A DNA stretch of 64,000 bases from Kiritimatiellia bacterium (lineage in GTDB: Bacteria; Verrucomicrobiota; Kiritimatiellia; RFP12; UBA1067), in contig JAZTWW010000036.1 in NCBI GenBank assembly GCA_045636065.1, positions 5,404-69,403 on the forward strand. The letters are read 5' to 3'. The position numbers and the translations under genes were made by a program. The notes beneath the pieces are model-generated. The model saw only the letters and a program-made list of their open reading frames with translations. It did no database searches and was not told the DNA's origin. The stretch's first letter is position 1. Each line of letters starts with the position of its first letter. Positions 11,924-34,596 of the stretch are shown here, one piece after another.

Positions 11924-12000
11924 TGGTGGATCCTGAGGGACTCGAACCCCCAACCTACGGAGTATGAGACCGCAGCTCTAACCAATTGAGCTAAGGATCC
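11924..12000 (-). tRNA. tRNA-Met (anticodon CAT; elongator type, could alternatively be tRNA-Ile2 if lysidinylated)
   Basis: 77-nt cloverleaf GGATCCT-TA-GCTC/AATTGGTTA/GAGC-T-GCGGT/CTCATAC/TCCGT-AGGTT-GGGGG/TTCGAGT/CCCTC-AGGATCC-A-CCA. 7-bp acceptor stem with G1-C72 (not initiator), U33, anticodon CAU, A37, encoded CCA. Confidence 0.85.
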
Positions 12001-20344: not shown

Positions 20345-21079
20345 TTACAGAATAGACACATACCCCAAGCCATCGTTGGAGTCTGCGGCACCTAGAACCA
20401 GATGATCCAGAAAGCCAATTTCCAAGGAACGCGCGAGGCGTCTAAGCGTTTTCGTCAATGCCACGTCCTTCTTGCTGGGCGTCGGATCGCCGCTCGGATG
20501 ATTGTGTGCGACATAGATGTAACTCGCACTCCAGCGGACAGCATCCCGGAAGACCTCCCGCGCATAGACACGTGACGAATCAACCGACCCGCGGAACAGG
20601 CAGATTGGCTCGCAAATCGGATGCTTCCGCGCGTTCAGCGGTAGCACCCAGAAGCATTCCTGTTCTTCCTGCTCAAGTGCCGCGGTCCGGAACAGGCGAT
20701 AGGCCTCCCGTGCCGATGTCACCTTCATCAGACGAACCTCTTCCGGCTCCGGCCGTGCCGCCCGATACCCCAGCTCAAACGCCGCGGCAAGTTCCAAGCA
20801 CTTCACATGCCCAAGGCCCAGGATCGGTTTCTCCTTGTGCTCGGCATTGTACTTCTCGATCCGTGCCTCGATTGTCCGCCAATCCGAAGTGACAAGCCGC
20901 TGGATGGACCCAAATGCCGCGATCAGCCGACGGGACAGTTCCATTACATCACATCCAGCCGAACCCGTGCGCAGCAGAATTGCCAATATCGCCTCCGACG
21001 GGACCGAATGCGGACTGGCCGCACGCTCCATCTGCTCGCGCGGCTTCAGTTCCCCAGACTTCTTCTTGAAATTATTCAT
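20345..21079 (-). CDS. radC: RadC-family JAB/MPN domain protein
   Basis: JAMM motif HNHPSGDPTPSKKD and an N-terminal HhH-like segment (LGLGHVKCLELAAAF). Start overlaps the hsdR stop. Confidence 0.85.
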   Translation of the reverse strand: MNNFKKKSGELKPREQMERAASPHSVPSEAILAILLRTGSAGCDVMELSRRLIAAFGSIQRLVTSDWRTIEARIEKYNAEHKEKPILGLGHVKCLELAAAFELGYRAARPEPEEVRLMKVTSAREAYRLFRTAALEQEEQECFWVLPLNARKHPICEPICLFRGSVDSSRVYAREVFRDAVRWSASYIYVAHNHPSGDPTPSKKDVALTKTLRRLARSLEIGFLDHLVLGAADSNDGLGYVSIL

Positions 21080-24000
21080 TACGCTGCAGTATCCGGCAAT
21101 GCATAGAAATAGTTGTAAACTTCTTCAAGCAACTCGTCCTGCACCTTCGGCGAAGCCAACGCATCCGGCAAATCGGCATACAGGACATTCACAATCTCCG
21201 TCCGCACATCCGCACAAGTCGATGCCTTATCCCGCCAGTTCTCGACCGTAGACACCAAGGCCCGAAGCCGCGCAAGCAGCTCTTTAGCCACGCCCTTGAC
21301 CCTCTTCAAATCTGCCTGGGACAATTTCTCCTTCGACCTCAGGATGTCAAAGACCGCCAGCTGCTGGTTATCGTCCAGCTCCTCGCGGATATACCGCGCC
21401 TGTTCCTCGGTCACATCCTTCATGAGCTTTAGCAACTCCTGCAGGGCCTTTTCAATCGCCGCCTTGTCGTGTGCCTTATTGTACTCCTCGATAATCTCCT
21501 GCAAGGCCTGATAGTAGTTCTGGCAATGGGGGTTCTGCACGACCATGGACGAAATGACGTCCTCCGCCTTCTCGGACAGCTGCTTCAGAAGGAGCTTCTT
21601 GTACTTGTAACCCTCAATTGACTTCGCCATCCGCGAGAAGTCCAGCTTGCTCAGATCAAGCGCCACCTCATCGCACTTCTCGGCAACTGACGGCAAGGCG
21701 TTCTTCACATGGTCGCCGATGGTCTGCTGCAACTCCGCGAACAACGCCGTCAGGTCGGTCTTCTCCGCCTCACGGTGGTGCTCAATGTGCGAACGAATCT
21801 CACGAATGGCGTCCCGCTTGGCGCGGATCGTATCGCTGAGCTCGTCCGAATCAATGAACTTGGCGATGTCGTCCATCTTATTCGCCACGGCAATGAACGC
21901 CCGCGCGACATTATCCGGCGACGCCACCGCGTCTGCCGCGGTCTTCAGCATCTGCGGACGCGCCATCACATCCGCATCCAGCAACGCTTTGAGCCGGAAG
22001 CCATTGTCGGACAGCAATTTCACGTCCGCCGCAATCGCCTCTTCGTAATGCTTCAAGAGTTCTTCGATCGGCGGTAGCGGATTCTTCGGCTCTCCACCCT
22101 CGCCACCGATAACGCCGGTGAAGTCGGCGAGCGCACGGCCCAACGCATCGATGAGCCCGATGTAATCGACAATCACGCCATTGCGCTTGCCCTCGAACAC
22201 CCGATTCGCCCGCGCAATTGCCTGCATGAGCGTGTGCGCCTTGAGCGGCTTGTCGAGATAGAGCGTTCCCAGACACGGCACATCAAAGCCCGTCAGCCAC
22301 ATCGCGCACACAAAGGCGACGCGGAACGGATTCTGCGCCTTCTTGAAGTCCTTCTCCAGCTCCTTGCCCGCGATGTCCCGCTTGTAGGGCTTGATGTCGA
22401 TGCCGAATTTCTTGAAATACTCGACATCCCCCTGCTCCTGACTGATGACGAGCTCCATCCGCGTCTCTTTCATCCACGCGACACGCTCCTCCAGCTCTTG
22501 CTGGCGTTCGGCCGTCCGCCGCGCCTTCTTAACGGGATCCTTCGCCGACTCGTCCAGTTCCTCGGTGTACTTCTCCCACTCCGCGATAACGGCCTTCCAC
22601 GTGCGATACGCCGCGACCTTGTTGACGCTCACGAACATGGCCTTGCCGCTCCGCCACCGCGCAGAGTAGTCCCGCACGAAGTCCTTCGCCTTGATCGCGA
22701 TGGTCTCCGGCGCCATGTAAATCATGATCTTGGACTTGATGGCGTCATCCACCCGCTTGCGGTCCTGCGGATCGAGGTCCTCCTGCTCCACCGCCTCGAT
22801 GAGCTCCTGGTTGATGGACGGCGAATCGATGCCAAGCTTGTTGACCCGCGTCTTGTAGAAGAGCGGCACGGTTGCATGGTCCTCGACCGCGCGGTTGAAG
22901 TCGTAGACGGACACATACTGCCCGAACTGCTTCTCCGTCAAGTCACCGCGCTGAAGCGGCGTTCCCGTGAACCCGATGCGCGAGGCATCCGGCAGGAACC
23001 TGAGCATGTTGTCCGCGAAGATGCCGTTGTTGGTGCGGTGCGCCTCATCGGAGAAGATGACGATCTCATGGTCAGGATGAATCGGCGTCCATGTCGAGGA
23101 ATTGAACTTGTGGATCAGCGTGAACAGGAAACGGTCGTTCCCCTCCAGCCGTTTCCGCAGCCGCTCGCCGGACGACGGCATGCACGATTTCGGAAGCGCA
23201 TCGCCGAGGCATCCGCAGCTCGCGAACGTCCCGGCAATCTGCTCGTTCAGCTCGTCGCGGTCCGTCACGATCAAGAAGGACGGCGAACCGCCCGACTTGC
23301 GCAGGATCTTTCGCGCAAGGAACACCATCGAATAGCTCTTGCCCGACCCCTGCGTGTGCCAGAAGACGCCGATCTTCCCGTTCTTCTCCTGCCGCTTCAG
23401 ATAACTCCGATAGGCATTATTCACCCCGAGATACTGGTGGTTGCGGGCGAACACCTTGAACATGTTCCCGTCGTTCGAATCGAAGAGGATGAAGTTCTCC
23501 ACCAGATCGAGGAAGTTCGCCCGCGGGCACACCCCTTCGATAAGCTTCTTCAGCGACACGACCGCCTTGTCATCCTCGGCATGGCGCTTCCACTCCCCGA
23601 AGAACTCCCAGTCACTCCCGAGCGCCCCGATGTGCGTCTCGTTGCCGTTTGAGAAGACCAGCATCGCGTTGAAGCGGAACAGCTCGGGAATCGCGGCAAG
23701 ATAGTCCTTGTAGTTCTTGTCGTATCCTTCCTTGTCCTTGTGGGACGGCTTCTTGAACTCCATGAAGAGAAGCGGCAGTCCGTTCACGAAACCGATCAGG
23801 TCGGGACGCTTCACGAATCCCGGCGCGGTCACCCACAGCTCGCGTACGCACAGGAACTCGTTGTTCGGTCCCGTCGGATCGTCGAAGTCGATCAGCTTCG
23901 CCCGCCGCTCCGCCTCGCCGTCCTCTCCGAATTCCTCATCCGTCACCTTCACGCCGTCCCGGACGAACTCATACGCCTCGGAGTTGAGCTGCATCAGCGA

Positions 24001-24258
24001 CTTTCCGTGCTCGACGGTCTTCAGTTTTTCAATCGCCTCTTCAACCTGCGCATCCGTTATCCAGTCTCCGTTGATCCGCTTGAGTGCCGCCCGCACCGAC
24101 CGCCACAGCACCGTCTCCGACTTGTCCGCCCGCCCGAGCATCCCGTTCGGTCCAAACGTCTCGGCATCATACGCCAACACGCTCGTCCACCCGACGGCCT
24201 CCATCATTTTCGCCGCGGGTTCCTGCACGATGTTTTGTTCGGAATAGGTCCAGCTCAT
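21079..24258 (-). CDS. hsdR: type I restriction enzyme, R (endonuclease/translocase) subunit
   Basis: 1,059 aa with the N-terminal nuclease region, SF2 helicase motifs (GSGKSYSMV Walker A, DEAH box [11 protein letters not shown]) and a C-terminal helical domain. Confidence 0.92.
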
Positions 24259-24262
24259 GTGC

Positions 24263-25468
24263 TCACACCTCGATTTCCCCGCTCATCAACTTCGGCAACA
24301 GCCGATCCCGCGCCTCGGTGAGCGTACGGATTTGGCTGCGCATCGTTTGAATCTGTAAAGTCATATTACCAAGAACAGTAAATAACTTACTATCAAAATC
24401 ACCCAATTGAATTTCGGAGTCAAGGAATTCGTCAAAGGCAAAATTATTGATGCCGTTTGCACCCGCGTTTTTAAACACCTTCATTTTCCCTGACGACTGC
24501 AAATACTTGATATGCCATGCCAAAACAATTGACATTTGATTGTCTATCGGGCGCATGAACTTACAAAAGCTTGCGCATATCACAACATCATCAAACCAAG
24601 ATAACATATCATCCGAGACAAGCAAACTTCTTCCAATGTTATCGATATTACCATTTGACAACTCAATGATTATATCCCCACTAATTAATCGTTTGGTCTC
24701 TATATCATGCTTAGAATGAACTCTCAAAGGAATAGAGCTCTTGTTACCATACGATAAATCGTCAATATCAGTTCCTCGAATAACGTAACCACATTCGGTA
24801 AACTTGCCAATACTATTTTCTTTACCCCATCCCCCATTGGCATAATGGCGCAAAATCTCCCAAATCCTCTTCTTCTCCCCCTTGCCATCCTTGAACCATT
24901 CGCGATAGAGGCGCATGGCGGCCTCTTCCAGAAGCGCGATCTGCTTGCGGCAATTCGCAATCGCCGAATCGTAGTCGGAGAGTATCGCGACAATTTGCGA
25001 CCTTACATTCTTCTCCGGCACAGGGATCTCTAAATTCCGCAATTGATCAAGTGATATGTATTGCTGACTTGACCCTCGAAAATTACCGCGCAGAGCACCC
25101 TGTCCCATTGGGCTCGTCAAATAATAATAAAGCCATTTCGCTTTTTCCTCATCCCCGGACATTTTAAACAATGCAATATTCTTAATGGCATAATCGGGAT
25201 CATCCTTAACAATGGCACATTCCCCAACCGTGCCAATCATCGTCATCAGAATATCCCAGCGATCAACTTTGCTTCTCTCGTTGATCTTCCTATAATCTTT
25301 TTCTGAAATCAAATAAGCATCTTCAACCCGAACAACACCCTGCTTCACAACCTTTGATGTCACTAGCGGCTTTCCTCCACCCTCTACAGATTTGGGGCTA
25401 TCGTGCGTTCCATCGCGAACAGAAGCACAAAATTCAGCCGCCTTTTGCAAAACCCACTTGCTCATCAC
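24263..25468 (-). CDS. hsdS: type I R-M specificity subunit
   Basis: Two target-recognition domains separated by a conserved central repeat. Very AT-rich DNA relative to its surroundings. Sits between the regulator and hsdR with 4-nt spacing or overlaps. Confidence 0.85.
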
Positions 25469-27222
25469 CGCGCCTCCCCGACGAGATGGTAGCCACCAGT
25501 CTTCTTGCTGCCGCGGTGCTCGACCTTTCCGGCCGCGATCAATGCGGCAAGGGCTCGCTCAACAGTGGCCTTGCTCTTGCCAACGCGCAAGACAATCTCC
25601 GGCTTGTTAATTCCCGGTCGCGATTTTATCGCCTCATTTATCGCCTCATTTATCGCCTCAGGGGATTTTATCGCCTCACCCTTTTGGCCAGTTTTTCGAT
25701 AAGGCATCTGCTTGTCGTTACGCGACTGTATGATCTTGGCCTCTCGCAAGGTCGACAAAGCATTGTTGATGGTACGCAAGGCCATCCCCGTCCTCGCGCA
25801 AATCTGCGGAATTGTCACGCTTTTATCGGCAATAAGCTCGTGAAGCACGGTCTCAACATTCGCACGTGCATCCTTGCGAAGCTTTGGAAGACGAGCGAGC
25901 AGTTCCCCGATGTTATCCGCAGCTGTAGTGCCAATTATCGTCCAACCTGTGCCAGATAATCCGTGACCAGTGCCAGTTCTGTCCGAAGCAGTGCCAGTTC
26001 TTGCGGCAACAATGCCATTTCTTTGATCGGGCGTATTGACGCCTGTCCAATCTGGGCGCTTGAAAATGGTGGTGACACAACCGTATTCTTCTTTGACCTT
26101 TGGTACGGGCAACCCCACCCTGACACATTCATTGGCAATCCGAGTAAGCCCGCGTCCCCATGTCTCGATGGATTTGCGCAGATACAGGACGCGCGCGATT
26201 TTCTCATTCCGCGGTTCCGAATGTTGGATTGGCGGTGAATACAATCTGGCGAGGTTGAAATCTGACGGGAACTTCCCGGGGTTCTTGATTTCAACCCGGT
26301 CATCGTAGATGGCGAGGTAAATCGTTTGGCTGCGGTTTTCGTAGCTGCGATGGGCAAAGGCGTTCACCAACGCTTCGCGGAGTGCGTCCGCAGGAATCTC
26401 CAGCTCTTCGTCTCGTTCGATCTTGCCGCTCGTCCATGCCGCCAGATTCAAATGCTTGAAGCAGAAAGCCATCGCAGCGTCTATCATCTTGAAGACATTG
26501 CCCTGCACATGGGAATTGTCGAGGAACACCCGCTGATCAGTTCCCTTGAACCATCCCATCTTAATTTCGAGTTGCGGATAATCGATGCGATCCGCCTTCC
26601 CGAAAAGCACGGCGGCACCATTCAACAGAGTTCCATTCTTCCTCAGCTTGAAATGGTCGAGCAACGAGGCGGCGTTTTCGGTATCGACACTTTCATCAAG
26701 CCGCCCGACCCGCACCGCCTTTCGCGCCGTATCTCGAATGACATCCAAATCAAGATCGTCGAGCGACAGTTCCGGATTCGGCTGATCTTCCCATTCGCTC
26801 CTGAATCCACCCCTCGCAAGGAGCATCCGCTCGTACTCCTCCTGGCTCATTACAGTCGTTGAGGACTGCACACGCTTGTGCGGCTTTCCATCGTAGATAT
26901 AGGGCTTGCGGTTCCCGCCATCGACATGACACACGATGGCCGTATGCGTGTCGTCAATAGGAACATACGAAACCTCAATATCCGCCGCAGGCTCGAACTT
27001 CTGAAATGCCTCGAAAAGATCGCGCTTTGTCGTATCGGCAATCAGCTGTCCTGTCAGTCGGCCCTTGCGTGTCACGCCGAAAACAACCGTGCCTCCATCC
27101 TTGTTTAGAAACGCGCACAAAGTCTCGCAGGCGTCAACGCGCTGTCCGGTCGTTTCCTTGAATTCGACCGTCTCGCCTTCGCCCTGGGCAAGCAGAATTT
27201 GCAGTTCATCTAATGTCTTCAC
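25465..27222 (-). CDS. AlbA_2 (Schlafen-like) + HATPase_c_4 + C-terminal wHTH putative transcriptional regulator
   Basis: N-terminal ...LQILLAQGEGETVEFKETTGQ... signature of the AAA-4/AlbA_2 family. C-terminus has a GT-rich linker, an AINEAINEAIK repeat and two wHTH-like segments. Overlaps hsdM (ATGA) and hsdS (ATGA). Confidence 0.8.
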   Translation of the reverse strand: MKTLDELQILLAQGEGETVEFKETTGQRVDACETLCAFLNKDGGTVVFGVTRKGRLTGQLIADTTKRDLFEAFQKFEPAADIEVSYVPIDDTHTAIVCHVDGGNRKPYIYDGKPHKRVQSSTTVMSQEEYERMLLARGGFRSEWEDQPNPELSLDDLDLDVIRDTARKAVRVGRLDESVDTENAASLLDHFKLRKNGTLLNGAAVLFGKADRIDYPQLEIKMGWFKGTDQRVFLDNSHVQGNVFKMIDAAMAFCFKHLNLAAWTSGKIERDEELEIPADALREALVNAFAHRSYENRSQTIYLAIYDDRVEIKNPGKFPSDFNLARLYSPPIQHSEPRNEKIARVLYLRKSIETWGRGLTRIANECVRVGLPVPKVKEEYGCVTTIFKRPDWTGVNTPDQRNGIVAARTGTASDRTGTGHGLSGTGWTIIGTTAADNIGELLARLPKLRKDARANVETVLHELIADKSVTIPQICARTGMALRTINNALSTLREAKIIQSRNDKQMPYRKTGQKGEAIKSPEAINEAINEAIKSRPGINKPEIVLRVGKSKATVERALAALIAAGKVEHRGSKKTGGYHLVGEAR

Positions 27223-29021
27223 AACCCCAGCCCCTTCAAGTTCTTGTCGATGGACTTCATAAGCGCGGCAGATTCGTCTTGCAGTTTCAACAGCTCGGCG
27301 TGAATCTCCTTCATGCGCGACTTGAAATCAACCGTGTCCTTTGGCGGCGGCGGAACGCCCACGTAACTGCCGGGGTTGAGCGACCACTTCTTTGCTTCGA
27401 TGTCGGCAACCGCGGCAGATTTGCAAAGCCCGGGGGTGTCCTCGTAGGTTCCCTTTTCGCCGAACTTGGACACAAGCCAATCTCGCTCTGCGGCAAGTTC
27501 GTCGCGCTCTTTGCGGACGGCCTCGGCTTGCTCGGCTTTACGAAGAAGGTCTTTCTTCTCGTTCCGCCAACCCTTCTCCTTCGCCGCCTCGACCTTCTCT
27601 ACCTCAGCGCGGAACTTCGCCGGATCGCCTGCCGCCTTCACCTGCAAATCAAGCGCGGAAAGCGCCGCCTTGTAATCCTCCAGCAGCTTCGCGTACTTCT
27701 CCTTCTCGCCGCGCCAGAGCCAGCGGATCGCCGAGATATTCCGAATCTGCCACGGCGTCCACTCGTTGTGCGTCGTGTCGATCACATGGAAGTAATTCCG
27801 CATGTCGAGGAAAAGCACCTCGTTCTTCCGCGTCGCCGGCTTCTGCTTGTCAAAGAACCAAAGCGTACACGGCAGCGACTTCGTGAAGAAGAAGTTGTTG
27901 CCGACGCTCAGCATTGAATCGACATGTCCCGACTTGACGAGCTTCGAGCGGATCAGCTGCTCGTTGCCGTCCGCATCGGGAGCGGATGCCGCCATCACGA
28001 ATCCCGCCTTGCCGGTCGCGTTCAGGTAGGAATAGAAATACTGGATCCAAAGGTAGTTGCCGTTGGAAACGATGTCGTCCTTGTTCACGCCTGGAGAGCC
28101 GAAGACAAGCCGTGGATCGTTCAGGACCGACTTGCCCTTCAATCCGTGACAGTTGAACGGCGGATTCGCCATCACGTAGTTGCATTTGCCGCGCAGATGA
28201 TGGGCGTCATTGAAGAACGTGTTCGCGCCCTCTCCGTAGGCGATCTTCGACGGATCGAACCCGTGCACGGCCATGTTCATCAGACAGATCTTGCCGTTCG
28301 TATCCGTCTTTTCCTGTCCGAAGAACGTCAACAGCTGGTTCGCGTTCCCGCCCGACTCCGAAACGAAGTCGCCGGACGAAATGAACATGCCGCCCGATCC
28401 GCAAGCTGGATCCAGCACGATGCCCTTCTTCGGTTCCAGGAAGCTCACGATCAGCCGTACGATCGGTTTCGGCGTGAAGAACACGCCATCATCACTCGCC
28501 ACCTGCGGTGCAAAGCATCCGAGGAAGTATTCGTAGATACGCCCGAACGCGTCATCGCCCAACTTGGAAATCTTCTCGTCCGCGAAGTTCCGCAAGAGCC
28601 CACGCAGCAAGTCCGGCGTCAGCTGATTGTAGGTCTTGGGAAGAACGCCCTTCAACACCGGCATCGCATCCTCAATCGCCTTCATCGCATCATTGACCGC
28701 CTTGCAGATATCGGCATTCTCAGGGAGCCCCGTCAGATAGTCGTACCGCGCATTCTCCGGTACGAACATGGCGGACTCCTTGATGAAGTCATCCGCCCGC
28801 ACCGGCCGCGGCACTCCATTCCGACACGGCCAGTTCTTCGACTCCTTAAGCTTCTTCTCAATCAGCCGGAACCGAAACGTCGCATGCCGCAGAAATATGA
28901 TGCCCAGTACCGGCATGTAATACATCTGCGATGTGAGCGACGACTCATTTCTCAGCGAGTCCGCCGTCTCCCACAGGCTCTTCTCCAACTCATCCAACGA
29001 TGTCTGCTGTTCAGTTGTCAT
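27219..29021 (-). CDS. hsdM: type I R-M N6-adenine DNA methyltransferase subunit
   Basis: HsdM N-domain, motif I VLDPACGSGGMF, motif IV MANPPFN. Confidence 0.92.
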   Translation of the reverse strand: MTTEQQTSLDELEKSLWETADSLRNESSLTSQMYYMPVLGIIFLRHATFRFRLIEKKLKESKNWPCRNGVPRPVRADDFIKESAMFVPENARYDYLTGLPENADICKAVNDAMKAIEDAMPVLKGVLPKTYNQLTPDLLRGLLRNFADEKISKLGDDAFGRIYEYFLGCFAPQVASDDGVFFTPKPIVRLIVSFLEPKKGIVLDPACGSGGMFISSGDFVSESGGNANQLLTFFGQEKTDTNGKICLMNMAVHGFDPSKIAYGEGANTFFNDAHHLRGKCNYVMANPPFNCHGLKGKSVLNDPRLVFGSPGVNKDDIVSNGNYLWIQYFYSYLNATGKAGFVMAASAPDADGNEQLIRSKLVKSGHVDSMLSVGNNFFFTKSLPCTLWFFDKQKPATRKNEVLFLDMRNYFHVIDTTHNEWTPWQIRNISAIRWLWRGEKEKYAKLLEDYKAALSALDLQVKAAGDPAKFRAEVEKVEAAKEKGWRNEKKDLLRKAEQAEAVRKERDELAAERDWLVSKFGEKGTYEDTPGLCKSAAVADIEAKKWSLNPGSYVGVPPPPKDTVDFKSRMKEIHAELLKLQDESAALMKSIDKNLKGLGL

Positions 29022-29043: not shown

Positions 29044-30702
29044 TCAACTCCAATCTCTTGGATTTATGCCATTGGCAGCAGCCGTCTTCTTGAACATTAT
29101 TTTCAACCCCGCTGTAAATCTCGCGACCGCCTGCTGATTTGATGAATCCGCGACCCAAAACCTCATCAACTCAATAAAAAAAGGTTCATACCTGCTCCAA
29201 ATCGCTTTTGTTTCAGCTCGGCGAACTCCTTCTGTACTCCTTCCCGATGCATGCAAATCACTTATCTTCCGTTCCATGGCCTCCCAATCGCTCTCAATCC
29301 TACTGAAATATGTCCGACTATAACCATTATTAGTAGCTGCAGGGGAATGCCAAAAAGTGTCTGCGCCACCATGACACAACCTCTTGCCATACTCGAATAG
29401 AAATTGCTCTGGAGATTTGTTATCACCAGGCAATACTATAAGATTGTTTGTAACATCCTGTTTTTTATCGCCATCCAAAACCGCAAAGGCAGTGGATTTC
29501 ACGGACAAGCACCCGTCTTTAAAAATCGTCTCAAGATTAGTTGCCCCAATGAAAGATCCGACGAAATGGAAATGTGTTCGCAAGTGCTCTATCCCTGATC
29601 CCCGACAGAAGATATGATCCAGCAAAACACCCAAAACGACCCTTGCCTCATCATCCTCTGCAAGCACCGGGATCTTCCGTCCCTCATACAAATCCCTGCG
29701 GGTACAATTCTTCAGATGCATCCTGATTTTAAACATATCAGGATCCGGCAATACACTTATATGATCAAGGTCGTCGATGAAGTATATAACATTGTCGCCC
29801 TTCGTCAGCACATCTTCTAGCAACGCAAGGCTATGCGTTGTACAAATGACTTGAATCTTATAGTCTGTTGCATATTTTCGCAGCAACTCGCACAGTTCAA
29901 TCTGCAAAGACGGATGAAGAGTAGCATCAAGCTCATCAATCAACAAAACGCTTTCTGTAAAACCTGTTTTAGTCGACAACTTCTCATAGTAATATCGCAG
30001 CGACACTAATGCACGCAAAATACATAATACATTATCCTCTCCCGATGAAATCGTGTTCGAATCTACACCCTGCACCGTTGTCTCAAATTCTTCACAGCAC
30101 TTCAATGATGCAACATTACTTACCACATGCTTTGCGCCCATCTCTATTCGGGTCAACCGCTTATATAGGTCCGCCAGCTCATTGTTATATTCCACAGGCA
30201 ACTGTTTTCCAACGCGTCTGGTTGCAACATCATCCGCCAGCTCTCCTCGCGGAAGCAATCGAGGCAAGCCCAAATAGATCACTGGCATCTCAGGCAACTT
30301 CTCATGGGTTCCTGGCGCATAATTTGGTTTTACCGCAAAGCGAAAATTCTGATCTGACCTGTGTCGTCTAAAATTCAAAGCCAACCCATTCTCGTAGTTG
30401 ATTGTAAACAACGTGCCCACAATACCACGCGCTGGGTCACGATATTTTTTATCGCCCCGAACCAACGATTCAATTTTGCAATTCATCCCAGCATTGATAC
30501 GGGCAATGATGCTGACACACGCGCCGTCAAGCATTCGAGGATTCGCCGACTGCTTAGCTCGCTTGTACGCATTACTAATCATATGTAAAACAGAACTTTT
30601 ACAAGTTCCGTTTGTGCCTGATATAATATTCACGCCCGGACAAAAGTCCAAATCCAAGCCCTTCAGCTTGCGATATTGCACAATTGACAATTTCGAAATC
30701 AT
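29044..30702 (-). CDS. OLD/GajA-like ABC-type ATPase with C-terminal TOPRIM-like region (solo, no helicase partner)
   Basis: Walker A GTNGTCKSS, ABC-signature-like SGEDNV, Walker B/D-loop LLIDELDATLHP, H-loop ICTTHS. The C-terminal ~200 aa has an acidic Glu motif (IPVLAEDDEARVV) and a DxD motif (AFAVLDGDKK) spaced as in TOPRIM. 552 aa matches class 1 OLD/GajA length. Confidence 0.6.
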   Translation of the reverse strand: MISKLSIVQYRKLKGLDLDFCPGVNIISGTNGTCKSSVLHMISNAYKRAKQSANPRMLDGACVSIIARINAGMNCKIESLVRGDKKYRDPARGIVGTLFTINYENGLALNFRRHRSDQNFRFAVKPNYAPGTHEKLPEMPVIYLGLPRLLPRGELADDVATRRVGKQLPVEYNNELADLYKRLTRIEMGAKHVVSNVASLKCCEEFETTVQGVDSNTISSGEDNVLCILRALVSLRYYYEKLSTKTGFTESVLLIDELDATLHPSLQIELCELLRKYATDYKIQVICTTHSLALLEDVLTKGDNVIYFIDDLDHISVLPDPDMFKIRMHLKNCTRRDLYEGRKIPVLAEDDEARVVLGVLLDHIFCRGSGIEHLRTHFHFVGSFIGATNLETIFKDGCLSVKSTAFAVLDGDKKQDVTNNLIVLPGDNKSPEQFLFEYGKRLCHGGADTFWHSPAATNNGYSRTYFSRIESDWEAMERKISDLHASGRSTEGVRRAETKAIWSRYEPFFIELMRFWVADSSNQQAVARFTAGLKIMFKKTAAANGINPRDWS

Positions 30703-30720: not shown

Positions 30721-31590
30721 TCAGATGAAAAGTCTATCCATCCCAACACGACGAACTTCGGACATTGTAGGAATCAACTCTTTTCGCCCGAAAAACATCA
30801 CTTCTTTCCCGTTCCCATTGTTTGCCAAACTATAGTTGAGCGTAAACTTTCTGCTGGGAAGTCCCTTGTAAATCTTGCATATCTGCGGCACGTCATCATA
30901 CGAAACGATCCAAGGGCACGTAACATCTGACTTGATCTTGGCACACAAAGCCTGATGTTTCTTCTCATCAAAGAAATTCTGATACAAGTCTTTCCCCTTA
31001 CGGTAATACGGGGGGTCAAAATAGACAAAAGCGTTTGCCTCAAACTGTTTAAGCTGCCTGGAAATAAAGCTCTCCACGTCTCTGTTGAACACATGGATTT
31101 GCTTTCTCTTTCGTCCGATCGCTTCTATCTTTTTTGATAAGTCATTCTTCGGATAACGCACATCAAGTTTCCACGCGCCCTGCTCCATTCCCCCAATCGG
31201 TCCCGAAGATAAAATACCCGAATGATTTGTGCGATTCAAAAAGAAAGTCGCAAAGCCATATTCCAATGCGTATTTCTTCCCCGTCAGGTAAATCTCTCGT
31301 TGCTTCTTCCATTCATCAAGTGTGACGGGGGTACTATGAAGCATATCAATAAATGCATCATTCTCTTGTACAACAGCCTTCCAGAACGAATAAATTGCGG
31401 GATCCGAATCGTTGATCACAATTTCAGAGACAACATCACGCAAAAGCAAATCTATCGCTATTCCAGCACCTCCAGCGAACGGCTCAACATACACAGAACA
31501 ATTATCACCGGACTTGTTTACCAACAACTCAATGAGTTTGCTGATTTTATATTTTCCACCGGGATATCGTAGTGGTGACGGATTACCCAT
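30721..31590 (-). CDS. D12-class (Dam-like) N6-adenine DNA methyltransferase
   Basis: YPGGK (Dam K-WAGGK equivalent), motif I EPFAGGAGI, FFLNRTNHSG (Dam NRTxFNG region), motif IV VYFDPPYY. Confidence 0.85.
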   Translation of the reverse strand: MGNPSPLRYPGGKYKISKLIELLVNKSGDNCSVYVEPFAGGAGIAIDLLLRDVVSEIVINDSDPAIYSFWKAVVQENDAFIDMLHSTPVTLDEWKKQREIYLTGKKYALEYGFATFFLNRTNHSGILSSGPIGGMEQGAWKLDVRYPKNDLSKKIEAIGRKRKQIHVFNRDVESFISRQLKQFEANAFVYFDPPYYRKGKDLYQNFFDEKKHQALCAKIKSDVTCPWIVSYDDVPQICKIYKGLPSRKFTLNYSLANNGNGKEVMFFGRKELIPTMSEVRRVGMDRLFI

Positions 31591-32878
31591 TGCTCGCTCC
31601 CCTTTCTCTCTTGCAGTGAAGTCTTAACAGCCCGCCAACAATCAAAGACATCGCAATCGTTTGCGCAAGATTATAACTCCCCGTGTAATTATGTGCGCCC
31701 GTCTGCAACAACCCAACGATGTTGCTTTTAGTGACGGCATTTTGCGCCAAGAAAGTTTTTTGGTCCTGCGAAAGCGATGCCTTGGCATCATCAAAGCCAT
31801 TCATCACCAATGCACTCATGTCGCGAGAGGACGAACACTTTGCAATCAACTCGCACTCCAAGCGCAATGCCATACGGATAAGTGCAGGGAATCGATCCGA
31901 TAAATTGTCTTTATGCTTTTCATAGTAATTATACAAGTCCAGAATATCGCGATACAAATTTGCCGGCTCACCAACATCCAAATCTAATTTTCCGCCGAAG
32001 AGAGCCATTGACGAAGAGCCAACCCTCCTAGGCAATCGTGCAGCCTGTTGTGCATCCGTGGAGGAAACATTTAAACATTGAAAATCATCTGACTTCAAAT
32101 CAACGTCATGATATTCTTTATCTGCGTCAGCATCAACAATGGCCTTCAACTTTGGATCAATCAAAACGCAAAGCGGCTCTTTGCGCCCATTTCGCGTACT
32201 AATCCTCTTGTCTTTTACCAGAGAAAAAATGTGCTCTAACAGCCTCTGCGTATCCTTGGCATTATGCCGAGACGAGACGCGTCCCTTTTCAATCTTTATG
32301 CCGATGCTTTTCATCCTCGGATTCGTCAGCACCTCTTCGCGCACAAATCGCTGATTTAGATAACTCGTCGCCTCAACCCTTCCATCCAACATTTCATTCA
32401 ATTGCAGCAACACACTCTTGGGTTGCTTCATGAATTTATACAGGAACACATCACGCGCTATCTGATCCCACGAGCCTGTATCCGCATGTTTACGCCAAAC
32501 ACTCTCAATAGCAACATCCTCAGATGCCACACAACAAGGCAAAACCTCAGGGCAATCTGGCATCTTGAATTTCAAGTCACAAAACTCAGGATACAACCCC
32601 AACTTAAGCATCGCAAGGATTACACGCCTATTCCCATCATAAACGATTGGCGCACCATTCTTGTAAACAACCGTGGGCAATTCGCTGAAATCATAACGTG
32701 CCCCCATCTTCTTCGCGAGTTTCTTGATCTCCCACTTCTTACCCGCATCAACAAGCGCATGCCGGATGACAGTCTCATTTTTACTCCTTGACGAAATGGG
32801 GTCACGTGGATTCTCCGTCCAAAGAACCAAATCCCTGACAGGGATTTTCTCTACAGTCTGTTTTTCTTGATTATCCAT
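31583..32878 (-). CDS. ParB/Srx-fold (ParBc-like) N-terminal domain protein with ~320-aa unknown C-terminal region
   Basis: IPVRDLVLWTENPRDPI...VYDGNRRVILAMLKLG matches ParB (P..NPR...iaGeRRlrAa). The start codon overlaps the Dam gene end by 8 nt. Start set at an ATG (the track start is a TTG 4 codons upstream). Confidence 0.6.
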   Translation of the reverse strand: MDNQEKQTVEKIPVRDLVLWTENPRDPISSRSKNETVIRHALVDAGKKWEIKKLAKKMGARYDFSELPTVVYKNGAPIVYDGNRRVILAMLKLGLYPEFCDLKFKMPDCPEVLPCCVASEDVAIESVWRKHADTGSWDQIARDVFLYKFMKQPKSVLLQLNEMLDGRVEATSYLNQRFVREEVLTNPRMKSIGIKIEKGRVSSRHNAKDTQRLLEHIFSLVKDKRISTRNGRKEPLCVLIDPKLKAIVDADADKEYHDVDLKSDDFQCLNVSSTDAQQAARLPRRVGSSSMALFGGKLDLDVGEPANLYRDILDLYNYYEKHKDNLSDRFPALIRMALRLECELIAKCSSSRDMSALVMNGFDDAKASLSQDQKTFLAQNAVTKSNIVGLLQTGAHNYTGSYNLAQTIAMSLIVGGLLRLHCKRERGASNG

Positions 32879-32905
32879 ACAGTGATCCAATTATGGTGTT
32901 TATAA

Positions 32906-33475
32906 TTATAACATTTTAATGGTGGGGAGCACGAGATGATGGGCAATCTTCGCGCGAGCGAGGAACATCAAATCGACAATCCCGACGAATCGCGCTTTGA
33001 CATATTCCTGCCAGGTCTTGCCTTTGGGAAATTTTATGTTGCCCTTGCCACAGGTCGATTCCCAGCCGAACTCTGTTCCGGGATCAAACTTGACGACTTC
33101 AGCGCTGAACGGACTAGAATCAGGCTTCTTCCTCCCGAACCAAGCGACATCAACAAGGTTGTTCTGCTTGTTGCAAATCCATGACGGAGTAAAGACCTCT
33201 GAACGTTTCACCACGCGCTGACGCTGCTCCTCGGCGCTCTTGTCGACACGCGGACGGATCACGGGATTGTCCTTGTCGACAATCTGCTCTATCCGAATCT
33301 CGTCACCGGCACCGAATCCCTTGCCGCGCTCAGCATAGTCATCCGTCGCCCAAATAAGGTTTCGCCACGTCGATCGGTCTTTCAAGAGTACGGCAAGCAC
33401 TTCTTCTGGAATGTTCCATTCCAGAATGTCGCGGCCAAAGCCGCTTGTCCCCTTTGTGTTTTGCTTAATCATCAT
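32906..33475 (-). CDS. hypothetical protein (possible degenerate gamma-class MTase N-terminal fragment)
   Basis: SEVFTPSWICNKQNNLVD resembles MTase motif X (GxVyTPxxiVxxMv). KFDPGTEFGW is at most a degenerate motif I. No other motifs were found. Confidence 0.4.
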   Translation of the reverse strand: MMIKQNTKGTSGFGRDILEWNIPEEVLAVLLKDRSTWRNLIWATDDYAERGKGFGAGDEIRIEQIVDKDNPVIRPRVDKSAEEQRQRVVKRSEVFTPSWICNKQNNLVDVAWFGRKKPDSSPFSAEVVKFDPGTEFGWESTCGKGNIKFPKGKTWQEYVKARFVGIVDLMFLARAKIAHHLVLPTIKML

Positions 33476-33483
33476 TTCTAGGT

Positions 33484-33496
33484 TAATATTATACCA
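33484..33496 (-). promoter_or_regulatory. putative extended -10 (TGGTATAAT) overlapping the ORF6N stop, upstream of the 32906-33475 gene
   Basis: Minus strand caggaaTGGTATAATatt. The -10 is at plus 33488-33493, only about 12 nt before the ATG (near-leaderless). Confidence 0.35.
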
Positions 33497-34448
33497 TTCC
33501 TGTCGTTTTTACGCCCACCACAAACACTGACTTCTTGATGCGGCGAATATCGGCGGAATCTAGCTTCGTGAAGGCGAAGCACTTCTTGCCGAGGTCTTTC
33601 AGCGATGCGCCTATCAGGTAGAGTTCCTTGTCATCGACGATGAGAAAGCGGTCATGGAACGATTCATTGTAGCGAACGGAGAGCTCCGGGTATTGGGCGT
33701 TGAAGGTCTTGATATCGGCATCGGAAATCTTGCGGTGCGGCATGTGCTTCTTGTCGTAATGCTCCGACGTGAAGACCGTCACCTTCACGCCCTTGCGCTT
33801 CTTCGCGAAGAGGTCGAGCACCTCCGTCGTCGCCCAGTTGTCGATGAGCATCAGCGAACTCTTCGCTCCAGCGACCAGCTTCAGCACCAACGCCCGCGCA
33901 TCCCACAGCTGCCCGTCGTAAAACACGCCCTGAATAGGCGTTTCAGTCGCGTCAATGCGCTGCAGGATGGAATCTACTTTCGCATCCGTGGCAATCTGCC
34001 GCTTCTCCACCGCCTCGATTCGCTGAAACATCTGCGCGTTCGCAAGCAAGAACCGACGCATCGCAGAGAAGGCCCGCATAATGCGGATGTTCACTTCGAT
34101 GGCCGTAGGCGAACGGAGGACGCTGCTCAACATGGCAATACCATTTTCCGTAAAAGCGTATGGGAGCTGACGATCACCGCCCCAACTTGAGATGCCATTT
34201 TGGCATTTCAAGTTATCCCATTCTTCGGCGGACAGTCTGAACATGAAGTCCTCCGGGAATCGCTCTTCGTTGCGCTTGACCTGCCTGTTCAACGCCCCGG
34301 TCGCCACGCCATACAACCTTGCCACATCGCGATCAAGTATGACCTGCACTCCTCGAATAGGCTTGATCAACGCCTGAATGTTGCCCGTATCACTCACGAC
34401 AACAGCCTGTACTTGCTGACCGGAAATGGCATTCCCATTCTGCCTCAT
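33489..34448 (-). CDS. ORF6N (KilA-N-like) domain protein with unknown C-terminal domain
   Basis: IRGVQVILDRDVARLYGVATGALNRQVKRNEERFPEDFMFRLSAEEWDNL is a typical ORF6N/Rha-like N-domain. Start set at the ATG 34448 (AAAGGAGG RBS 5 nt upstream). Confidence 0.65.
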   Translation of the reverse strand: MRQNGNAISGQQVQAVVVSDTGNIQALIKPIRGVQVILDRDVARLYGVATGALNRQVKRNEERFPEDFMFRLSAEEWDNLKCQNGISSWGGDRQLPYAFTENGIAMLSSVLRSPTAIEVNIRIMRAFSAMRRFLLANAQMFQRIEAVEKRQIATDAKVDSILQRIDATETPIQGVFYDGQLWDARALVLKLVAGAKSSLMLIDNWATTEVLDLFAKKRKGVKVTVFTSEHYDKKHMPHRKISDADIKTFNAQYPELSVRYNESFHDRFLIVDDKELYLIGASLKDLGKKCFAFTKLDSADIRRIKKSVFVVGVKTTGMV

Positions 34449-34596
34449 GCCGCCTCCTTTACATCCGCAATCCGCTTGAGCAGCAGACAACTGGACTTAT
34501 CGCAATTTGCGACAAGTTCATACGTTTCAAGCCGCACGTCTGGCCGGACGGTCCCGTTCGGCTGGTCCACGGCAATCTGGGTTTCGCTTGCGCTCA
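34446..34596 (-). CDS. possible 49-aa upstream ORF translationally coupled (ATGA) to the ORF6N gene
   Basis: MSASETQIAVDQPNGTVRPDVRLETYELVANCDKSSCLLLKRIADVKEAA. Its stop overlaps the ORF6N start. A TTTGGTATAAT -10 lies 16 nt upstream of its ATG. Confidence 0.3.

Follow-up and report, generated by a model that had tools for sequence, protein, structure and literature searches.

Two-gene systems joining a ParB/HEPN protein to a DNA methylase are already known. ParB-HEPN fusions, as well as operons in which genes for HEPN proteins, nucleases of the ParB type and methylases of DNA occur together, were catalogued by Anantharaman et al. in 2013 (PMC3710099), and one system of this kind, PD-lambda-5, was later recovered by functional selection in Escherichia coli from a prophage of ECOR7 and annotated in the supplement as 'ParB/HEPN, methyltransferase' (Vassallo et al. 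2022; PMC9519451). PD-lambda-5 protects E. coli against nearly all tested coliphages, was termed a compacted R-M+Abi (i.e., restriction-modification plus abortive infection) system, and required a strain lacking mrr for its cloning (PMC9519451), which implies that its methylase is active. In this work we analysed a 64,000-nucleotide stretch of a Kiritimatiellia bacterium contig (JAZTWW010000036.1; hereafter the window), where a gene for a ParB-like protein (A) and a gene for a Dam-like methylase (B) stand one behind the other and are followed by a gene for an OLD-like ATPase, which probably belongs to the same unit (Table 1). In our judgement the locus is probably a divergent relative of PD-lambda-5 with three genes, an R-M-like module that works against phages by way of methylation. 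An earlier interpretation made from the letters of the DNA (the sequence-only reading) had proposed an R-M-like pair with a ParB-fold protein as non-canonical restriction partner; this proposal is supported by an architecture that is that of PD-lambda-5, to which the pair is tied by the methylase match, the profile-profile homology of A, natural chimeras and strict synteny.

As in PD-lambda-5, a co-directional ParB/HEPN gene precedes the gene of a D12-class, Dam-like methylase; the A proteins are homologous over some 230 N-terminal residues and share a conserved R...H-N in a C-terminal helical domain, and chimeras join the two lineages. The two systems differ in the length of A (431 amino acids in the window, 501 in PD-lambda-5) and in its C-terminal domain, which belongs to a different sequence family. 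They also differ in their hosts, PD-lambda-5 being found in enterobacterial prophages whilst members of the window lineage sit mostly on chromosomes (of Bacteroidota, Verrucomicrobiota/Kiritimatiellia, Proteobacteria, Patescibacteria and others), and in the OLD-like ATPase, which the window version adds.

The methylase carries all the D12 hallmarks ascribed to it earlier (YPGGK, FAGGAG, NRTNHSG and FDPPY), and matches the Pfam family PF02086 (MethyltransfD12; E = 1e-21) and the TIGR00571 dam model (E = 4e-18). Its match to the PADLOC profile PD-Lambda-5_B (PDLC04018) is far stronger, with E = 7.7e-106 over model positions 4-282 of 291, that is, essentially full length. As a reference for canonical PD-lambda-5 we used an E. 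coli locus from a P2-like prophage hotspot (L085), which we treat as such because its profile scores are high (A protein, 501 amino acids, against PD-Lambda-5_A, 7e-168 over the full length; B protein against PD-Lambda-5_B, 8e-122) and because its span of 2460 bp fits the published 2461 bp. Over its full length the window methylase shares 40% identity with the B protein of L085 (E = 5e-73), and the DPPY motif is intact in all 89 related methylases.

The A protein has a large family, in which at least 1340 homologues are full-length, with about 410-430 amino acids each, and a profile search of 1.84 billion representatives gave 335 clusters of this family at 50% identity. Its likeness to the A protein of PD-lambda-5 emerges with sensitive methods: when the window family was aligned with the canonical family by hhalign, the probability was 96.5% (E = 7.8e-10) over window residues 7-237, a stretch that takes in the ParB domain and the greater part of the middle one, where the canonical KHTG...W motif falls in register. 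The motifs of both families run in parallel (NPR / GNRR / KH..G..W / R...H-N), and R339 and H396 (the latter followed by Asn), the only two C-terminal residues whose conservation reaches 90% in each family, share columns in the joint alignment.

The C-terminal parts are linked by proteins that nature itself has recombined. In five bridge proteins (P0481, P0483, P0489, P0468 and P0499) the first ~300 residues match canonical PD-Lambda-5_A with E values from 1e-70 to 5e-31, and the last ~150 positions of the window-family profile are matched with E = 2e-49 and weaker; P0481 shares 44% identity at its C-terminus with window A residues 276-425 (E = 6e-30), and its gene lies directly upstream of one for a 289-amino-acid D12 methylase, with CBASS-like and ParDE genes adjoining. 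Given the hhalign homology and these chimeras, we place window A, as a mosaic protein, in a PD-lambda-5 A superfamily of extended scope, in which the C-terminal domain, as far as the sequences tell, behaves as a cassette exchangeable between A lineages.

The predicted structure of A agrees with this division. In an AlphaFold2 model of the 431-amino-acid protein (mean pLDDT 88.6) a ParB/Srx domain at the N-terminus is followed by a middle domain and, at the C-terminus, by a bundle that looks HEPN-like, with a low-confidence, disordered linker at residues 274-288. In a Foldseek search with this model, ParB dimers bound to CDP or CTP rank first (probability 0.89-0.99, E about 5e-3); the alignments to ParB span 270-290 columns and may therefore extend past the N-domain into the DNA-binding region of ParB. 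Partition ParB and KorB are among the top structural matches. The fold matches also include HEPN proteins, namely LAS1L (6.8), a HEPN toxin (6.7), 4nqf (6.7), Roquin, Las1, the sacsin HEPN domain, AbiA, Csm6, LsoA and RnlA. For model-based assignments, these domain folds are reasonable. Membership of A in the ParB/Srx superfamily is also indicated by motif, since both the fold and the phosphate-binding GxxR / DGxxR arginine motif are found, and the ParB-type stretches pointed out by the sequence-only reading (NPRDPI and DGNRRVILAMLKLG) are both there. The same reading mentions neither a HEPN-like domain nor the ATPase and had seen no recognisable motif in the ~320 residues past the ParB domain, which does not hold: they fold confidently and contain the invariant RKH...GSW, STR...R, LYRD, R339 and AH396-x-Y398. 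A Pfam scan of window A, 30 members of its family and 25 canonical PD-lambda-5 A proteins gave noise and no ParBc or HEPN match, NCBIfam gave nothing meaningful for A, a search of PDB sequences with the family profile returned chance matches to FtsY, and an exact-sequence lookup of window A found no record.

In a sample of 80 genomic loci encoding relatives of A, whose neighbouring open reading frames (ORFs) were clustered for a census, a homologue of the window methylase lies nearby in 80 of 80, and in 73 of them it is on the same strand, -20 to +100 nt downstream; this pairing is far beyond chance. Only three families recur in these neighbourhoods, namely A itself (80), the methylase (80) and the ATPase (15), all others being found in at most 5 loci; no ParA-like family recurs in the census, in which no search was made for parS sites. 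The hosts are widely scattered (Kiritimatiellia, Bacteroidota, Beta-, Gamma- and Alphaproteobacteria, Verrucomicrobiota, Chloroflexota, Saccharibacteria, Woesebacteria, Omnitrophota, Fibrobacterota, Spirochaetota, Gemmatimonadota and others). Viral collections, on the other hand, are nearly empty of the A family, with only 3 loci in IMG/VR and no match among the INPHARED phages by tblastn of the A protein, which is why we take it to be mainly chromosomal. In three loci two ParB/HEPN paralogues are stacked beside a single methylase: window-type A, then canonical A, then the methylase in L019 (7995-11567); a canonical A+B pair with a window-type A 2.4 kb away in L018 (3051-9245); and canonical A upstream of window-type A and the methylase in L041 (772-4310). 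Convergent rather than co-directional PD-lambda-5 A and B genes also occur, in an E. coli lambdoid prophage (L084, 3262-5566) and in a Pseudomonas phage (L082, 4001-6233), the 3' ends overlapping by about 20 nt in the latter.

The order of the two genes in the window is the reverse of that first described, where the methylase had been put upstream: the ParB-like gene comes first, and the ATG of the methylase (31590) lies inside its 3' end. The 8-nt overlap itself was correctly noticed. With AAGGGGAG, which inspection of the sequence suggests to be Shine-Dalgarno-like, upstream of the methylase start codon, the overlap appears to couple the translation of B to that of A; an identical 8-nt overlap is found in contigs L092-L095, and one of 4 nt in the Kiritimatiellaeota locus L001. 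The A gene could also start at a TTG at 32890, which would give 435 amino acids. The ATPase gene, which starts 18 nt 3' of the stop codon of the methylase, is preceded by a separate ribosome-binding site, GAGG. Since a scan for promoters and terminators gave counts no higher than in shuffled sequence, we claim transcription units only as far as the spacing of the genes shows them.

We infer every biochemical step of this module, down to what its HEPN-like domain cuts, and also the protection that the window variant would give; the course of events would be as follows. The methylase may modify a short motif across the host chromosome and so mark it as self. The A protein would bind DNA by its ParB/Srx and middle domains, perhaps by way of a nucleotide-bound switch around the invariant DGNRR arginines, and would be licensed only on unmethylated, incoming DNA. 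Licensing would then activate the C-terminal HEPN-like domain with its invariant R339 and H396, which would cut nucleic acid (most likely RNA, as other HEPN effectors do) and stop the infection. The arrangement of the genes would suit such a division of roles: with A before B and their codons overlapping, production of the dangerous protein is tied to that of the protective one, so that a potentially toxic A might never be translated without the methylase. The ATPase could be a second, optional effector relying on the same methylase.

Several observations weigh against this interpretation and should be set beside it. No PD-Lambda-5_A profile covers window A beyond the first ~100 residues: eight models match the ParB N-domain, the best of them (PDLC04007) aligning with residues 14-97 only (E = 6.3e-9), so that by the profile over most of its length A would not be a PD-lambda-5 component. 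By BLASTP, window A and the A protein of L085 are 29% identical over no more than 78 N-terminal residues, and hhalign of the C-terminal regions of the two families alone is not significant (E = 0.21), which is the reason for taking the C-terminal link from the bridge proteins. The canonical HEPN motif, Rx4-6H, is not found in the alignment of the A family, where the invariant H396 (consensus LLHTGAHNY) has no Arg 4-6 residues upstream and the invariant R339 stands ~57 residues earlier; the A proteins of canonical PD-lambda-5 have the same R...H pattern and are likewise without Rx4-6H. The stretch of A that corresponds to ParB box III (ENLQR), in positions that we take to follow the Spo0J motifs, reads (W)RKHAD, with R129-K130-H131 invariant. 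Box III residues are needed by ParB for CTP hydrolysis, and with RKH in place of ENLQR a hydrolysis of CTP like that of partition ParB is doubtful for A. Finally, a defence activity is presumed for the window variant by extrapolation from E. coli, where the A protein of the relative is less than 30% identical, and no study of the mechanism of PD-lambda-5 was found in the literature searched.

The identity of A as a CTPase partition ParB of the ParABS type was considered separately and rejected, on account of the (W)RKHAD reading of box III and of the census, in which a ParA-like neighbour does not recur. Nor does the locus look like a classical type II R-M system, neither A nor the ATPase showing an endonuclease fold of the PD-(D/E)XK, HNH, GIY-YIG or PLD kind.

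The third gene invites a different distribution of roles. It encodes a protein with an AAA_15/AAA_21 ATPase match in the library scans and a C-terminal half to which Pfam assigns nothing, Toprim included. This half nevertheless has a beta-alpha-beta pattern with an invariant E349-D350-x-E352 after one strand and D410-G411-D412 after another, which resembles a Toprim signature, and the PADLOC ATPase-Toprim model aligns to residues 218-416; a Toprim assignment is thus likely but unproven. The ATPase gene stands beside the window-type pair in 15 of the 80 loci (upstream in 11, downstream in 2, on both sides in 2), and the order A-B-ATPase-HsdM of the window recurs in four gut-metagenome contigs; in Faecalicoccus a homologue lies between a canonical PD-lambda-5 A gene and its methylase. 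In other places it accompanies a PD-lambda-5 B-like methylase with no ParB protein at all: in an E. coli P2-like prophage hotspot (L086, 3150-5710), whose ATPase is 40% identical to that of the window over its full length, at an integrase site adjacent to icd (L083, 1388-4027; icd, intE), in Citrobacter phage phiNP (L081, 2122-4801) and in Sporomusa (L087, 5001-7565). This combination has the look of a two-gene module in its own right; the literature searched has no name for a module of ATPase + Dam, and the ATPase of the ParB-less module has no strong match in PADLOC (best HEC-04, E = 3e-22).

It could be argued from these pairs that the functional R-M-like partners are the methylase and the ATPase/Toprim protein, acting as an ATP-dependent DNase on unmethylated DNA, with the ParB/HEPN protein as a separate add-on that could serve as a backup by abortive infection or as a regulator. 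Proteins of the OLD family are well known as nucleases. The term R-M+Abi given to PD-lambda-5 by Vassallo et al. (PMC9519451) would also suit such a view. However, 60 of the 80 window-type loci are without any ATPase, as is the experimentally active E. coli PD-lambda-5, so the ParB/HEPN + methylase pair is self-sufficient; in addition, loci with and without the ATPase are interleaved in the methylase tree, where even near relatives differ in having it, an indication that it is often gained and lost. We therefore consider the ATPase unlikely to be the restriction partner proper; the methylase looks rather like a hub that is served by the ParB/HEPN protein, by the facultative ATPase, or by both.

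A somewhat more doubtful proposition is that the ParB-like protein assists or regulates modification as a cofactor, which would load, target or throttle the methylase in a modification-only or epigenetic module. There are precedents for this in the Dnd and Dpd systems, where ParB/Srx-fold proteins serve as modification accessories: DndB regulates phosphorothioation and DpdB is an ATPase needed for 7-deazaguanine insertion, both being ParB-like (PMC12839542). The coupling of A to B in translation, as well as the lack of a classical restriction endonuclease fold in A, would fit too. But such a cofactor would hardly carry a conserved HEPN-like domain of effector type that is exchanged as a cassette among A lineages; the same methylase lineage is found with no ParB protein, two A genes per methylase fit effectors better than cofactors, and the E. 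coli system actively blocks phages (PMC9519451).

It is very improbable that, as the sequence-only reading had offered by way of alternative, an orphan phage-derived Dam merely neighbours a partition- or plasmid-type ParB concerned with segregation or transcriptional silencing and has no part in defence, since the ParB fold, the partition ParB and KorB matches and the prophage residence of canonical PD-lambda-5, which would agree with it, are outweighed by the near absence of the family from viral collections, the chromosomal position of the locus within a defence island, the HEPN-like domain of A, and a census in which A keeps the company of a methylase throughout and never that of a recurrent ParA-like family, rather than grouping with ParB proteins of the partition, plasmid or terminase-associated sort that stand without one.

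Other known systems resemble parts of the PD-lambda-5-like module proposed here. In Saro_3948 and the MAE_28990 family, too, HEPN domains are joined to ParB-like domains and DNA methylases, by fusion or within an operon, and the contexts are R-M-like (PMC3710099); this is a likeness by architecture only, and they differ in mostly keeping the Rx4-6H motif that window A lacks. The type IV enzymes GmrSD, BrxU and SspE, in which a DUF262 ParB-like NTPase is joined to a DUF1524 HNH domain, share with window A an N-terminal ParB/Srx nucleotide-binding domain and a C-terminal nuclease-type effector in a single polypeptide, and their DGxxR motif reads DGQQR where that of window A reads DGNRR (PMC12839542 and general knowledge). 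In contrast to the window system, they attack modified DNA, have no cognate methylase and use an HNH, not a HEPN-like, effector; a faint match to GmrSD_N (E = 0.13) was seen in only one canonical PD-lambda-5 A member. As for the OLD family, Gabija GajA, PARIS AriA and Septu PtuA, the window ATPase falls below all curated family thresholds, has no Pfam Toprim match, and differs from all of them by its unique linkage to a Dam-like methylase.

The module lies in a low-GC island covering about 20-35 kb of the window (GC 0.45-0.56, against 0.60-0.64 in the flanks), which is packed with defence genes on the same strand (Table 1). No integrase or tRNA is seen at the borders of the island, the only tRNA in the window being a tRNA-Met at 11924-12000. 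The 189-amino-acid ORF, whose end lies 15 nt from the TTG of the ParB-like gene downstream and 27 nt from its ATG, probably remains from a longer gene that was truncated, perhaps when the cassette inserted. A 51%-identical homologue of the PDC-S05-type protein is found upstream of the pair in L001, and in the closely related metagenome contig L092, whose ATPase is 88% identical to that of the window, the slot after hsdM holds HsdS and a Fic gene instead.

Table 1. The A-B-ATPase locus and its neighbours, with positions in the window
Feature	Positions	Strand	Description
A gene	31583..32878	(-)	ORF; 431 aa from ATG; ParB/Srx + middle domain + HEPN-like (predicted)
ParB/Srx N-terminal domain (~aa 7-118)	32525..32860	(-)	invariant ENPR (22-25), DGNRR (81-85)
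Middle helical domain (~aa 119-290)	32009..32524	(-)	from alignment invariants and model segments; invariant R129-K130-H131, G135-S136-W137, T228-R229...R232
C-terminal HEPN-like domain, putatively four-helix (~aa 300-425)	31604..31981	(-)	invariant R310-D311, R339, H396, Y398
A/B overlap, 8 nt	31583..31590	(-)	ATGGGTAA; from sequence; B start codon within A stop region
B gene	30721..31590	(-)	ORF; 289 aa; D12-class (Dam-like) N6-adenine DNA methylase, PD-lambda-5 B type
Probable accessory ATPase gene	29044..30702	(-)	552 aa; SMC/Rad50/OLD-like ABC ATPase, Toprim-like C-terminal half
189-aa ORF	32906-33475	(-)	matches positions 6-146 of 327 of type II methylase model PDLC03390, E = 2e-35
ORF6N + PLD-like gene	33489-34490	(-)	333 aa; PADLOC candidate system PDC-S05, E = 8e-109
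HsdM	27219-29021	(-)	complete type I R-M system, directly downstream
AlbA_2/HATPase_c_4/wHTH gene	25465-27222	(-)	inserted between hsdM and hsdS, 4-nt overlaps
HsdS	24263-25468	(-)	same type I R-M system
HsdR	21079-24258	(-)	same type I R-M system
RadC/JAB gene	20345-21079	(-)	follows HsdR

If the module is indeed of the PD-lambda-5 kind, it is tempting to go one step further and suppose, quite tentatively, that a single Dam-like methylase provides the common self mark for a set of interchangeable effectors (the swappable ParB/HEPN proteins and the OLD-like ATPase/Toprim), the ParB/Srx domain being a nucleotide-gated clamp that reads the absence of N6-methyladenine and activates a HEPN-like nuclease of non-canonical type (R...H). 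Whether DNA is methylated would in that case decide directly on a response that targets RNA or aborts the infection, and restriction of this logic has not been described among R-M systems of types I-IV.

In conclusion, the kind of system is not new, having been catalogued as an architecture in 2013 (PMC3710099) and validated as PD-lambda-5 in 2022. What the sequences add is a sister lineage of A, widespread but not captured by the profiles that Pfam and PADLOC currently offer, a C-terminal effector domain apparently swapped between A lineages, and a recurrent three-gene form with an OLD-like ATPase. This matters since PD-lambda-5 is among the broadest-acting systems of the E. coli functional screen, and its A superfamily is far more modular than the profiles capture (Pfam sees none of it, PADLOC the first ~100 residues only). 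Defence annotators will accordingly under-call the A family, and a dedicated profile would recover hundreds more loci. The natural chimeras, together with the stacked A genes, single out the C-terminal helical domain, with R339 and H396, as the putative exchangeable effector. The window-type branch is found in bacteria of diverse phyla, with the methylase as its partner in every case; the same methylase lineage also occurs with the OLD-like ATPase, alone or in addition to the ParB/HEPN protein, which suggests that one methylase may be common to several effectors.

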